A DNA stretch of 63,666 nucleotides, filler included, from Reclinomonas americana ATCC 50394 (Eukaryota): the NCBI GenBank assembly GCA_048213135.1. It is 12 parts of 12 records of this genome, joined end to end, with 100 filler letters (N's around TTAATTAATTAA, not from the genome) between each part and the next. Parts side by side here need not be neighbours in the genome. Positions count along the whole stretch, not along the records: positions 7,049 to 13,526 come from AFZH01019525.1; positions 13,627 to 19,239 come from AFZH01019526.1; 10 more parts are not named here. The stretch is one strand, 5' to 3'. The stretch's first letter is position 1; every line of letters starts with the position of its first letter. The notes beneath the pieces were generated by a model that was not told the origin of the DNA, made no database searches, and was given only the letters and a program-made list of their open reading frames with translations. A program made the translations under genes and the position numbers. Shown here in pieces: positions 7,533 through 15,122 of this stretch.

Positions 7533-8612
7533 ATGTCCACACATCTCCCCTCCCGCTGCCTTTGCGGGCACACCAGCGCCATCCACTCCGTCGCTGTCAC
7601 TGCCGACGGCCGACACATTCTCAGTGCGGGTAACGCGGCGATTGTGCACGTGTGGTCGCTGGCCAGTGGCGAGGAGGTGCGACAGTTGCAGGTACACACA
7701 AGTTGGGTGTATGCGGTCGCCGTCACTCCCGACAGTGAGCACATTGTGAGTGGAGCGGCTGATGGCACCGTGCGTGTGTGGTCGCTGGCAAGCGGCGGAG
7801 AGGAAGTACAGCAGTTGAAGGGACACACTGCTGCAGTGCTGTGTGTTGCCGTCTCTCCGGATGGTCAGTTCATTGTGAGTGGGAGCGACGACATGCGTGT
7901 GCGAGTGTGGTCGCTGGCGAGCGGCGAGACAGTGCAATGGCTGGAGGGGCACACTCGTGCCGTGTACTCTGTCGCCGTCACCCTCGACGGGCAGCATGCT
8001 GTCAGTGGGAGTGGGGACAACACAGTGTGCATATGGTCACTGACGAGTGGAGAACAACTGCGACGGTGGGACCGACACTCGGGAACTGTGACCTCTGTCG
8101 CTGTCACTCCCGACGGCCGGCACGTGGTGAGCGGGAGTTTTGATAGAGCAGTGCGAGTGTGGTGCGTGGAGAGCGGCGAGGAAGTGCGACAAATGATGGG
8201 GCACACGCGCGCGGTTACGTCTGTCACCGTCACTCCCGATGGTCGCCACGTTGTGAGTGGCAGCTGGGACAACACAGTGCGCATCTGGTTAATGGCGAGT
8301 GGCGAGGAAGTGCGGCGGTTGGTAGGGCACACTGGGCTAGTGAACTCTGTCGCCGTCTCCCCCGATGGGCAACTCATCGTGAGTGGAAGCCAGGACAAGG
8401 ATGTGCGACTGTGGTCCACACCATGCGGACTCGCGCAACAGGAGCTCAAATGCGCACAGTCGGCGATGCAAGCAGTGCAGGAGATGCAGGTTGAGGGTGA
8501 AGGGGAAGACGATCCAGATCCGCGCTGTTTGGTGGAGATTGTGTTGCGCTGCTTTCTGGTGGAGGAGGCAGAGGTCATTGTCTATCGCCGCTTCACGAAC
8601 GACAGCCTTTGA
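7533..8612 (+). CDS. WD40 protein A (7 repeats plus conserved helical C-terminal tail), intronless
   Basis: Seven GH..V.SVAVTPDG..VVSGS.D.TVRVW repeats. Start MSTHLPSRCLCGH matches paralogue starts; the upstream part of the 483-aa ORF is CT-microsatellite. Confidence 0.9.
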   Translation: MSTHLPSRCLCGHTSAIHSVAVTADGRHILSAGNAAIVHVWSLASGEEVRQLQVHTSWVYAVAVTPDSEHIVSGAADGTVRVWSLASGGEEVQQLKGHTAAVLCVAVSPDGQFIVSGSDDMRVRVWSLASGETVQWLEGHTRAVYSVAVTLDGQHAVSGSGDNTVCIWSLTSGEQLRRWDRHSGTVTSVAVTPDGRHVVSGSFDRAVRVWCVESGEEVRQMMGHTRAVTSVTVTPDGRHVVSGSWDNTVRIWLMASGEEVRRLVGHTGLVNSVAVSPDGQLIVSGSQDKDVRLWSTPCGLAQQELKCAQSAMQAVQEMQVEGEGEDDPDPRCLVEIVLRCFLVEEAEVIVYRRFTNDSL

Positions 8613-8870
8613 TTGTGGGGGAAAGGAATGGACACATGTGTTGAGAGGATGTTGTGTTTTCTTCTGTGTTCTCTTGTTGCTTGTCGTGTTGCTTCTCCTG
8701 ATCAGGAAGCCTTCTGGTAGTCTCGTAATGTATGAATAGTCGTGCAACTGGGGTGGACCACTGTTGAGTCGAGGTGTGCAGGGTAAAGCACACGTTCTGG
8801 GTGCACGCTAGGAGTTGAGGCTACTCCAAAACTCCTTCGTGTAACGAACTTCGACCACGGAGCAATCAAT

Positions 8871-8890
8871 CGTCCTCCAACATAAGGACG
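8871..8890. promoter_or_regulatory. Conserved dyad CGTCCT-N8-AGGACG upstream of WD40 B
   Basis: Inverted repeat about 110 bp upstream of ATG; recurs before paralogues C, D and F. Confidence 0.5.
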
Positions 8891-8999
8891 TGGCATTCAC
8901 ACGCACGCACGCTGAACACGCGATCGAGTACACACGATCTCTGTCTCGCTCGCTTTCCCTCTTGCGCTCCCTCCCTCTCCCCCTCCTTCCTTTGACATC

Positions 9000-10082
9000 A
9001 TGTCCGCATCTCCTCCCTCTCTCCATTGCCGATGCCTGCTTGGACACCCCGGCGCCGTCTATTCCGTCGCAGTCACTCCCACTGGCCAACATGTGGTGAC
9101 TGGTAGTGCTGACCGCATCGTGCGAGTGTGGTCTGTGGCGAGTGGAGAGCAAGTGCTGCACTTGCAGGGACACACAGGTTGGGTGTATGCGGTCGCCGTC
9201 ACTCCCGACAGTGAGCACATTGTGAGTGGAGCGGCTGATGGTACTGTGCGTGTGTGGTCGCTGGCGAGCGGAGAGGAAGTACAGCAGTTTAAGGGACACA
9301 CTGCTGTGCTGTGTGTTGCGGTCACTCCCGACGGACTGTTTATTGTAAGTGGGAGCGGTGACAAGAGTGTGCGAGTGTGGTCGCTGGCGAGTGGCGAGAC
9401 AGTGCAACAGCTGGAGGGGCACACTCGTTCCGTGTACTCTGTCGTCGTCACCCCCGACGGGCAGCATGTTGTCAGTGGGAGTGGGGACAAGACTATTTGT
9501 GTGTGGTCACTGGCGAGTGGAGAACAACTGCAACGGTGGGACCGACACTTGGAAATTGTGACCTCTGTCGCAGCCACTCCCGACGGTCGGCACGTGGTGA
9601 GCGGGAGCTGGGATAAGACAGTTCGAGTGTTGTGCGTGGAGAGCGGCGAGGAAGTGCGACGATTGGAGGGGCACACGCGCGCGGTTACGTCTGTCACCGT
9701 CACTCCCGATGGTCTCCACGTGGTGAGTGGCAGCTGGGACAACACAGTGCGCATCTGGTTAATGGCGAGTGGCGAGGAAGTGCGGCGGTTGGACGGGAAC
9801 ACTGGGCAAGTGAACTCTGTCGCCGTCTCCCCCGATGGGCAACACATCGTGAGTGGATCTGTGGATAAGACAGTGCGCGTGTGGTCCACGCCGTATGGAC
9901 TCGCTCGACAGGAGCTCGAATGCGCACAGTCGGCTATGCAAGCAGTGCAGGAGATGCAGGTTGAGGGTGAAGGGGAAGACGATCCAGATCCGCGCTGTTT
10001 GGTGGAGATTGTGTTGCGCTGTTTTGTGGTGGAGGAGGCAGAGGTCATTGTCTATCTATGCTTCACGAACGACAGCCTTTGA
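9000..10082 (+). CDS. WD40 protein B (7 repeats plus tail), intronless
   Basis: Intact 360-aa ORF; 3' end and downstream intergenic DNA nearly identical to A with a 1470-bp period. Confidence 0.92.
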   Translation: MSASPPSLHCRCLLGHPGAVYSVAVTPTGQHVVTGSADRIVRVWSVASGEQVLHLQGHTGWVYAVAVTPDSEHIVSGAADGTVRVWSLASGEEVQQFKGHTAVLCVAVTPDGLFIVSGSGDKSVRVWSLASGETVQQLEGHTRSVYSVVVTPDGQHVVSGSGDKTICVWSLASGEQLQRWDRHLEIVTSVAATPDGRHVVSGSWDKTVRVLCVESGEEVRRLEGHTRAVTSVTVTPDGLHVVSGSWDNTVRIWLMASGEEVRRLDGNTGQVNSVAVSPDGQHIVSGSVDKTVRVWSTPYGLARQELECAQSAMQAVQEMQVEGEGEDDPDPRCLVEIVLRCFVVEEAEVIVYLCFTNDSL

Positions 10083-13709: not shown

Positions 13710-13923
13710 CTTCAGCGGGAGGTGGGGGAGAAGGTGGAACTCCTAGCCATCGAATGATCCGTGCCTCGATCTTCATCGCAGTTGTCGGTGACAGAAGAAG
13801 AAGCTTTTCATAAACCCTCTTGTTTCCTTGTGGCCATCTGCCTGTCTCCCTCCCACCCTGTGTGGAAAGTCATGCAGACCGCCTTACGCCTTCAAGTCTC
13901 GTCACAGACGTCGACAAAGGTAT

Positions 13924-13943
13924 CGTCCTACTTGAAAAGGACA
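13924..13943. promoter_or_regulatory. Dyad CGTCCT-N8-AGGACA upstream of WD40 F
   Basis: Arms retained in a more diverged paralogue; spacer acttgaaa. Confidence 0.45.
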
Positions 13944-13985
13944 GCGCATTCAACCGTCCTTCTCTCCCTCCCTCTCTCACGCATC

Positions 13986-15122
13986 ATGTCCTCCTCCCCT
14001 CCCTCGCTCCCAAGCATCTGCCTGCGCGGCCACACCAACGCCGTGCATTCTATCGCTATCACTCCCGACGGCCAGCGCATTGTTAGCAGCAGCAGTGATG
14101 GAACAGTTCGCGTGTGGTCACTGGTGACTGGTGAAGAAGAGCGGCGGTTGAACGGTCGTCCCAACTTGATGCTGTCTCTCGCTGTGACACCCGACGGTCA
14201 GCGCGTTGTCGGCGGGGGTGCTGATTCGACGATTCGAGGCTGGTCATTGGTGCACGTGAGCGGAGAGGAGGTTCTCCACTTTAATGGTCACACCCTGGCT
14301 GCGATGTCTGTTGCTGTCACCACCGATGGGCAGCATGTGGTGAGCGGGAGTGCAGATGACACCGTGCGAGTGTGGTCACTGGCGAGCGGCGAGGAGGTGC
14401 GACGATTGAAGGGACATAAGCAGCGAGTTTCCTGTGTCGCACTCACGCCCAATGACGAGTACATTGTGAGTGGAAGCCTAGATAAGACCGTGCGAGTGTG
14501 GTCACTGACGAGTGGCGAGGAGGTACGACGGTTGGAGGGACACACGGGAGGTGTGTACTCTGTCGCCGTCACACCCGACGGCCAGCACGTTGTGAGCAGC
14601 AGTAGTGTCACAGTGCGTGTATGGTCGATGGCGAGTGGGGAGGAGTTGCGACGGTTGGAGGGACACACAGGCTGGGTGATGTCTGTCGCCGTCACTCCCG
14701 ACGGTCAGCACGTGGTGAGTGGCTCCCATGACAAGACAGTGCGCGTGTGGTCACTGGCGAGTGGGGAGGAGGTGCGACGGTTGGTGGAGCACACGGATTA
14801 CGTGCTGTCTGTGGCCGTCTCCCCAGATGGTCAGCACATTATCAGCGGGAGTCGGGATCGCACCGTGCGCGTGTGGTCCACGCCGTGCGGCCTCGCGCGG
14901 CAAGAGCTCAGATGCGCGCAGTCGGCCATGTGCGCGGTGCAGGAAATGCAGCGAGACGTGGATGAGGAAGATCCTGATCCTCGCTGCTTGGTGGAGATTG
15001 TCATGCGGTGTTTCATGGTCGAGGAGGCCGAGGTCGTCGTCCATCGATGCTTCTCGGATGGCAGCCGTTGCATCGTACCATGTATGATCCAAGAGCAGCA
15101 GCTTAGGGTTGTGACTGTGTGA
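13986..15122 (+). CDS. WD40 protein F (7 repeats plus tail), intronless
   Basis: Start MSSSPPSLPSICLRGH matches paralogues; seven WD repeats; tail TPCGLARQEL...DPRCLVEIVMRCF. Confidence 0.9.
   Translation: MSSSPPSLPSICLRGHTNAVHSIAITPDGQRIVSSSSDGTVRVWSLVTGEEERRLNGRPNLMLSLAVTPDGQRVVGGGADSTIRGWSLVHVSGEEVLHFNGHTLAAMSVAVTTDGQHVVSGSADDTVRVWSLASGEEVRRLKGHKQRVSCVALTPNDEYIVSGSLDKTVRVWSLTSGEEVRRLEGHTGGVYSVAVTPDGQHVVSSSSVTVRVWSMASGEELRRLEGHTGWVMSVAVTPDGQHVVSGSHDKTVRVWSLASGEEVRRLVEHTDYVLSVAVSPDGQHIISGSRDRTVRVWSTPCGLARQELRCAQSAMCAVQEMQRDVDEEDPDPRCLVEIVMRCFMVEEAEVVVHRCFSDGSRCIVPCMIQEQQLRVVTV

Follow-up and report, generated by a model that had tools for sequence, protein, structure and literature searches.

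The question raised by this locus is how a run of neighbouring WD40 genes can hold to one repeat framework while a few positions in every repeat vary, and what the products of such genes might do. The window (the whole stretch of Reclinomonas americana DNA that was analysed, 63,666 nucleotides) contains six WD40 genes, A to F, in 7533-15122. They lie head-to-tail in one orientation, are without introns and have in common a two-helix C-terminal tail of ~65 residues. The original prediction of six co-oriented units at this place was borne out, as were the last-blade motifs quoted for A, B, C, D and F, which match exactly. As a count of genes it needs qualifying, since only A, B and F are intact, while C and D are frameshifted and E is incomplete.

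Gene A (7533..8612, plus strand; 359 aa) carries seven WD40 repeats and the conserved tail, and its first blade and upstream DNA differ in type from those of B-D. Gene B (9000..10082, plus strand; 360 aa) was modelled as a seven-bladed propeller followed by two helices, and gene F (13986..15122, plus strand; 378 aa), 61-62% identical to A and B, is an older paralogue. All three intact copies have seven repeats and are WD40 only (359-378 aa), with no NACHT domain. Gene C (10470..11370, plus strand) has a deletion of 185 bases at 10781/10782, by which most of blades 3-4 is gone and the frame is shifted. Gene D (11776..12851, plus strand) has lost 9 bases at one place and 2 bases at each of two others within blades 2-3 and meets a stop after 91 codons, and its blade 6 and tail are diverged relative to A-C. 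Seven GT-AG pairs in C and 40 in D could restore the frame, every one of them by removing propeller sequence; both genes are probable pseudogenes. The 5′ part of gene E (13038..13526, plus strand) has an ATG at 13038 and an open frame up to an assembly gap, with three complete repeats and the beginning of a fourth, but not the leader with which members of the family usually start. Directly after the gap (13527-13626) comes the end of a family tail (13627..13710, plus strand; tail profile E 1.4e-10), which was taken as the end of gene E.

The tail is kept in eight copies in the window, and in the model of gene B its helices occupy residues 298-322 and 331-356. Judged by sequence, it matches no known family convincingly: the curated Pfam cut-off was reached by none of seven tails, no F-box or SOCS family appeared at E up to 10, and the three PDB sequence matches were at chance level, none being of F-box or SOCS type. 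The second helix may resemble the start of an F-box or BC-box, a likeness that the Pfam and PDB sequence matches do not support. The tail model had a pTM of 0.43. Its fold search gave a best Z of 7.7, with 930 chains at Z of at least 5 and none at 8, and only generic helical hairpins among those listed; modelled as two copies, the tail scored 0.01 against a mark of 0.32, its own fold being uncertain. Among 1.84 billion proteins, the only credible relatives were a Reclinomonas americana transcript-derived protein and one further sequence. EukProt EP00694 P005839 (EST EC795383.1; P0121) is a 116-residue fragment with the last WD40 blade and the family tail, 58-68% identical to A, B, C, D and F; it is transcript-derived, and thus some member of the family is transcribed in a jakobid. 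Word searches returned no relatives for the tail of F and only P0122 itself for the tail of P0122. Tail peptide patterns had 393 matches in metagenome contigs, where the DNA pattern found none, and tail patterns had 238 in viral contigs; no match was confirmed in either set, and phage records yielded none. The Atlas gave no usable tail match, and blade 7 plus tail retrieved WD40 clusters only. P0123 (E 1e-4, 29 residues within a helical repeat protein) was rejected as a chance match. So far, the tail appears to be limited to jakobids.

Variation within the repeats is sharply localised. Across the 39 repeats of the array, positions 6, 10, 11, 13, 29 and 31 of the repeat have entropies of 2.8-3.4 bits and none of the other 36 exceeds 1.8 bits, in agreement with the earlier claim of variable positions within near-constant repeats. 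At the four sites examined by codon model below, 32 different residue combinations occur among 34 blades. Mapped onto the model of B, these sites fall in strand a or immediately ahead of it, and in the b-c loop, a location that by convention is the top face.

Outside the array, the window holds two dispersed members of the family and two related genes of another build. Member G (52769..53899, minus strand) has seven repeats and the tail, and the strongly diverged member H (61102..62268, minus strand) has the same tail. N2 (54062..59262, plus strand) is a NACHT-pentapeptide-WD40 gene with the same WD40 repeat family but without the tail; its first exon would consist of two codons and its second would be ubiquitin-like. 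N1 (43167..48309, plus strand), a second gene of this kind, has the same exon plan and two assembly gaps. Homology of the tail to the C-ends of the NACHT proteins was considered and rejected, with scores of 13.6 and 3.8 against 63-79 for true tails, shuffle p values of 0.026 for N1 and 0.23 for N2, and 4 of 121 and 44 of 121 unrelated C-ends, respectively, scoring as high.

These genes suggest an alternative in which the array products serve the NACHT-pentapeptide-WD40 (NLR-like) proteins as free sensors or decoys, their propellers binding a foreign ligand and passing it to, or shielding, the switch. The consensus repeats of the array and of the NACHT genes are alike at all 36 framework positions, while the best database repeat, among 123 proteins, reaches 30 of 36, and five of the array's hypervariable positions are hypervariable in G and the NACHT genes too (32 repeats). 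Furthermore, G and N2 stand head-to-head, their start codons separated by about 165 bases, and H follows N2. However, some 28 kb separate the array from the nearest NACHT gene in the window, and array blades show no recent DNA exchange with NACHT blades (silent divergence median 0.62, minimum 0.21; 864 pairs). The lack of any detectable relation between the tail and the NACHT C-ends also speaks against such a partnership, as does the fact that the first exons of N2 are inferred. We consider this alternative unlikely, although it fares best among those weighed here.

Whether the top face is under selection was addressed with codon models of A-D, which comprise only four, recombining sequences. 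Site classes were set beforehand as the four top-face codons selected in HET-E (PMC1805685). Omega was 3.0 at these four sites, 0.40 in the framework and 0.25 in the tail (p 9e-7). With A blade 1, D blade 6 and the D tail omitted, the four-site estimate was 3.1 (p 4e-6). Under the same omissions it was 2.9 (p 4e-5) when multi-base changes were allowed, 2.5 (p 0.001) with a local rate, and 2.3 (p 0.005) with both. The dN/dS check of the repeats thus returned omega above 1 (2.3-3.1) at the top-face codons in each four-gene model. By class, omega was 0.18 on the bottom face, 0.43 in the core and 1.09 in strand d, and across A-D it was 0.25-0.4 in the tail. The ‘nearly fixed’ framework of the original prediction was therefore right in that variation is concentrated, but overstated, with framework omega at 0.40-0.56 and the outer strand d near 1. 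Even spread, which would have spoken against selection, was not what we found: 29 of 87 amino-acid changes fall at the four sites, a count equalled by 2 of 111,930 four-position sets.

Other measures of the same contrast were less uniform. By bootstrap, the ratio of pN at the four sites to framework pS was 2.04 (interval 1.37-2.99). Against silent sites no more than two codons from the selected ones it was 1.54 (0.96-2.67), silent variation near the selected sites being borderline higher (17/70 versus 25/180 columns, p 0.06), and simple counting inside the four codons only gave dN 0.54 versus dS 0.43. Comparison of A with B alone was not significant (omega 1.8 at the four sites, p 0.13); as these are the only intact close copies, the omega result leans on the broken genes C and D. 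Top-face residues outpace silent DNA two- to threefold in their rate of change, and the bottom face and tail are conserved. A fast top face combined with a conserved opposite face and tail points to a family of binders.

The same figures could instead reflect relaxed constraint and patchy conversion, whereby the surface drifts and positive selection is simulated by short tracts acquired from diverged paralogues. In favour of this explanation, half the array consists of broken or incomplete genes, framework omega is high, the A/B comparison is not significant, non-coding DNA also holds a dense patch of differences (described below), and at the four sites 22 of 107 codon pairs differ at two or three bases. 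Yet decay brings omega to 1, never above, and omega was still 2.3 once multi-base changes and local rate had been accommodated. The exposed bottom loops have an omega of 0.18, and no donor for the dense patches was found in the window (best 30/36 and 29/36 bases). Relaxed constraint is therefore a rather improbable account.

Exchange between the copies is evident from how their differences are arranged. There are 18 differences between A and B in the 63 bases of 8388..8450 (plus strand; B counterpart 9858-9920), a patch that spans the blade-7 b-c loop and the start of the tail, and none of 10,000 permutations gave as many in a window of 63 bases. The AGC/TCT serine codon switch described there is present, and C is indeed a mosaic in the patch, with some states equal to those of A and others to those of B. 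The near-identity claimed for A and B elsewhere holds for the rest of the tail (6/162) and just downstream (3/168), but not for a second dense patch in non-coding DNA (8781..8860, plus strand; 17/80 bases differ). The strongest mosaic goes beyond the earlier observations: the first blade of A differs from that of B at 41 of 123 bases, and D differs from A at 33 of 126 in blade 6 and 44 of 192 in the tail. Blade 1 thus groups B, C and D against A, and blade 6 and the tail group A, B and C against D; separate trees per segment raised twice the log-likelihood by 205 (A-D). Longest shared runs were significant in two of six pairs (A-B p 0.004, A-C p 0.0004). Clustering of informative sites was not detected (31 sites, 20/30 switches, p 0.60), which indicates no long clean tracts by this test. 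Copies A-D are supported as recombinant mosaics, and the pattern fits unequal crossover and conversion between whole genes.

A and B are also identical over 185 bases, 8590..8774 (plus strand) and 10060-10244, which cover the end of the CDS and 3′ flank and represent a recent conversion or duplication. This is the single place where the assembler might confuse copies. B and C share an identical stretch of 122 bases. Such identities, together with the draft state of the assembly and its 11 gap spacers in the window, raise the concern that the mosaic is a chimera of collapsed paralogues or alleles. This is very unlikely, however, as a single contig without gaps (7049-13526) carries genes A to D and the start of E, the copies differ at about 11% of aligned bases (A/B 157/1461), and the deletion junction of C lacks any overlap by which an assembler could join it. 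Moreover, the differences sort by codon class, which mixed reads would not yield.

Blades within one gene are on average 55-59% identical in protein and 63-66% in DNA, the lowest pairs being 0.44 in A, 0.50 in B and 0.41 in F and the single best pair 83% in protein, in F. Of the 26 blades of A-D, 24 have as their nearest match the same-position blade of a paralogue (86-97%). The HNWD/NWD genes of Podospora anserina (HET-E, HET-D, HET-R) show top-face positive selection at two codon pairs, in the d-a loop region and the b-c turn, that flank a conserved residue, and HNWD repeats have internal identity over 80-85%, up to 100% (PMC1805685, PMC12222747, PMC4986451). The array resembles them in its selected top-face codons, pseudogene members and recombination between members. 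It differs in that its genes have no NACHT or HET domain, a single propeller and a C-terminal helical tail, that no blade shuffling or change in repeat number was seen, and that exchange involves whole tandem genes, in register. The proposed likeness to HET-E consequently stands for change at the same four top-face codons and for the mosaics, but is not supported for repeat shuffling and concerted evolution, nor do these genes hold a NACHT domain. A HET-E-type system, whose blades would be reshuffled and made alike both inside single genes and among genes, is largely refuted and highly improbable despite the shared positions, the pseudogenes and the 79% DNA identity of F blades 5/6, given the low identity of repeats within genes, their silent divergence (median 0.61), the clustering of blades by position and the constant seven blades.

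Two other groups offer parallels. Moderately repetitive WD40 proteins, defined by internal identity of at least 0.4 and below 0.7, occur in bacteria, fungi and protists, with Thermomonospora PkwA (PDB 5yzv) as a solved example (Hu et al. 2017, PMC5587647). Array genes fall in this range (lowest pairs 0.41-0.50, means 0.55-0.59) and likewise place variable hotspot residues on a conserved repeat. The gene B model superposes on PkwA with an rmsd of 0.9 over 287 columns at 43% identity, and the best sequence matches are bacterial-type repeats (50-58% identity). What sets the array apart is a eukaryotic tandem multigene arrangement, selection measured between paralogues and the conserved tail, which, inspected by coverage, was covered by none of 120 matches listed. 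Unstable tandem F-box families of Caenorhabditis combine a constant docking domain with a selected substrate-binding domain, and recognition of foreign proteins has been proposed for them (PMC8665587). Tandem duplication, birth and death, and a conserved part joined to a selected binding part are shared with the array; the array's constant part, however, is C-terminal and its tail has no F-box or SOCS match. With respect to cullin-RING substrate receptors (F-box, SOCS/VHL box, DCAF), a recognisable F-box or SOCS-box is absent from seven array-family tails, and any link to ubiquitin ligases would be by analogy only. The literature covered, mainly open-access, held no account of such a family in jakobids.

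The explanation that we hold to be slightly on the probable side is a birth-and-death family of stand-alone, one-propeller adaptors of variable specificity, coupled by the tail to a constant partner. Its copies multiply in tandem array, swap segments in register and decay; B and C may be hybrids formed by unequal crossover of an A-type with a D-type gene, followed by patchy conversion. The top face would bind ligands subject to change over time, the likeliest being proteins from viruses or intracellular bacteria, and the role of the family is probably defensive. In the weakest step, the tail and bottom face would attach to a single invariant partner of the host, which in turn would act on whatever ligand has been caught. 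The tandem F-box families suggest, by analogy, ubiquitin-ligase machinery as a first, doubtful guess at this partner, and other effectors are possible. The array may, by this inference, be a recognition repertoire.

Much has been written on the diversifying intracellular receptors of plants, animals and fungi, and far less on those of free-living protists. A jakobid cell-autonomous immune repertoire, made of diversifying stand-alone propellers with a new helical docking domain, a common effector and, as the head-to-head G/N2 pair suggests, paired ubiquitin-like-NACHT-WD40 switches, is as a whole quite unlikely, but if true it would mean that a deep-branching unicellular eukaryote has separated sensing from its NLR-like switch. 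Bearing the selection signature of HET-E without an NLR body or repeat shuffling, the array represents a second route to a variable propeller surface, on which whole genes are duplicated, segments are exchanged in register and point changes occur. The conserved tail offers a direct handle on what the propellers are wired to and, should the partner prove to be a ubiquitin ligase or the neighbouring NACHT proteins, there would be a testable innate-immune pathway in Discoba.

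The window holds six co-oriented WD40 units on the plus strand between positions 7533 and 15122, as the original prediction had stated, and the tandem array is real. As a draft eukaryotic scaffold, the window includes 11 gap spacers of 100 bases each, which were treated as ordered gaps because gene order and orientation run on across them, as in the exons of N1, one of two NACHT genes further along. In each of units A (7533–8612; 359 aa), B (9000–10082; 360 aa) and F (13986–15122; 378 aa), an intact frame in a single exon encodes seven Pfam WD40 repeats. In C (10470–11370), 185 bases corresponding to A positions 7839–8023 are missing, after which the sequence is out of frame. 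D (11776–12851) has lost 9 bases at one place and 2 bases at each of two others, and its frame meets a stop after 91 codons. Frame-restoring GT-AG pairs are present in both C and D, yet their use would cut out propeller sequence. The start of E (about 13038–13710) resembles the upstream element of F (85% over 27 bases) and is fused directly to a repeat; its frame, open from an ATG at 13038, is interrupted by a gap, past which a tail end lies. Upstream DNA is common to B, C and D, and that of A (7049–7532) is unlike it, consistent with the duplicated unit having its left edge at A. By inspection, the N-termini have no signal peptide, so a cytosolic site was assumed.

Within the 42-residue unit, positions 6, 10, 11, 13, 29 and 31 reach 2.8–3.4 bits of entropy across 39 array repeats, bearing out the proposed hypervariable sites, and all other positions have at most 1.8 bits. 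In HET-E, of the Podospora anserina NACHT-WD40 family, Paoletti et al. (PMC1805685) report selection at top-face codons 7, 9, 25 and 27, around conserved codons 8 and 26. By spacing, these correspond to array positions 11, 13, 29 and 31, and this set of four was chosen as the test class. On the AlphaFold2 model of B, used as secondary structure rather than coordinates and with "top face" following the convention of PMC1805685, they lie immediately before and within strand a, as well as on the b-c loop.

Codon models covered A–D, leaving out E, F and two dispersed family members, G and H, and disturbed stretches of D were masked. With a tree per blade, omega was 3.0 for the four-site class (p = 9e-7 against 1); the framework had 0.40, and the tail, the C-terminal segment that follows the propeller, 0.25. 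A single tree gave a four-site omega of 2.4 (p = 3e-5), and the wider seven-site HET-E set 1.85 (p = 0.002). A finer split placed bottom loops at 0.18, core at 0.43, positions 9–10 at 0.73 and strand d at 1.09. With the leader and first blade of A removed, along with the sixth blade and tail of D, the four-site value was 3.1; in this reduced set it was 2.9 with multi-base changes, 2.5 with local rate, and 2.3 (p = 0.005) with both together. Counting concurred, with a four-site pN of 0.32 against a framework pS of 0.16 (ratio 2.04, 1.37–2.99). Two counts were taken as contrary evidence: the four-site ratio against adjacent silent sites was 1.54 (0.96–2.67), and within the four codons dN was 0.54 and dS 0.43. 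The proposed dN/dS check held at the four sites over A–D, but for A versus B alone omega was 1.8 with p = 0.13, though changes in that pair were enriched at the four sites (9/23 versus 31/222, p = 0.005). We take the diversifying selection at these sites to be real, with moderately good support that comes from a small set of recombining sequences.

The dense patch of A/B differences noticed at 8388–8450 has a density far above chance, and a 185-base run of A/B identity is likewise far beyond it. In blade 1, B, C and D group together (7–17 of 120 bases differ) versus A (41–43 of 120). In blade 6 it is A, B and C that group (5–11 of 126) versus D (31–33 of 126), as they do in the tail (10–13 versus 44–46 of 192). 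Such groupings would be expected if an A-type and a D-type gene had recombined by unequal crossover, yielding hybrids that start as D-type and finish as A-type. Finer patches, including non-coding 8781–8860, point to gene conversion; no donors were found for them in the window, and informative sites did not cluster into long tracts (p = 0.60). That the mosaic is purely an artefact of assembly is unlikely, since the A–D differences sort by codon class.

The likeness to HET-E extends to the same four selected codons but not to repeat shuffling. HNWD repeats are described as more than 80% identical and shuffled within and between genes (PMC12222747; PMC4986451), whereas array repeats are only 55–59% identical in protein, their blades hold their position, and silent divergence between blades of a gene has a median of 0.61. 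They fit the WD40 class that Hu et al. (PMC5587647) call "moderately repetitive" and for which these authors likewise report variable hotspots. The closest database repeats, among the matches listed (P0001–P0120), are of bacterial type at 50–58% identity. Array genes are intronless and neighbouring genes intron-bearing, and the repeat family may have come from bacteria. Elsewhere in the window are a fragment of a divergent, unrelated WD40 gene with weak Pfam propeller matches (26136–26921) and the final exon of a gene for an AAA ATPase (20534–21667, minus strand; Pfam AAA E 1e-4), with a roughly 15-base tandem repeat ahead of it. A coiled-coil frame without significant Pfam match (35970–36875) ends in a motif that we take to be TLDc-like.

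The B model (pLDDT 91, pTM 0.87) comprises 28 strands plus two helices (298–322 and 331–356); its propeller lies at an rmsd of 0.9 from PkwA, and confidence along the tail drops from about 80 to below 60. The tail is predicted to be a two-helix hairpin and has 13 invariant columns among nine sequences; comparison with Pfam, PDB sequences and known folds gave nothing convincing. Its profile finds eight copies in the window (A–F, G and H), with the next match at E 1.3. Against 1.84 billion representatives, three proteins matched: a transcript-derived fragment from the jakobid Reclinomonas americana (E 3e-23), a divergent WD40 protein with the tail (E 1e-11), and a third that was discarded as a chance match. 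The transcript-derived protein is the nearest tail relative, at 58–68% identity to the array proteins, which supports no closer placement of the source than jakobid-like.

Two NACHT-pentapeptide-WD40 genes lie at 43–48 kb (N1) and 54–59 kb (N2). Their consensus repeat is identical to that of the array at 36/36 framework positions, and the propellers therefore have a common origin; no recent DNA exchange between array and NACHT-gene blades was found in the window. The idea that the tail is the C-end of NACHT proteins was rejected on comparison with N1 and N2. G (52769–53899, minus strand) stands head-to-head with N2 (plus strand; together 52769–59262), and H (61102–62268, minus strand) lies 1.8 kb beyond N2. 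In their first parts, at 43167–44111 and 54062–54485, both NACHT genes have a putative two-codon first exon, which in N2 would put its start codon about 165 bases from that of G. A ubiquitin-like second exon of roughly 90 codons (Pfam E 0.057 only) precedes the long exon in both, and Pfam offers no match for the 250 residues ahead of NACHT.

Positive selection on WD40 top faces is already known from HET-E (PMC1805685), and no description of a stand-alone, tandem, tail-bearing WD40 family in a jakobid was found in the literature searched. An adaptor whose targets change while its partner stays the same would be expected to pair a variable top face with a bottom face and tail that are constant. 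Tandem F-box genes of the nematode Caenorhabditis are reported to follow the same logic (PMC8665587), so ubiquitin-ligase machinery would be our first guess for that partner, though a doubtful one, and NACHT proteins may be the next.
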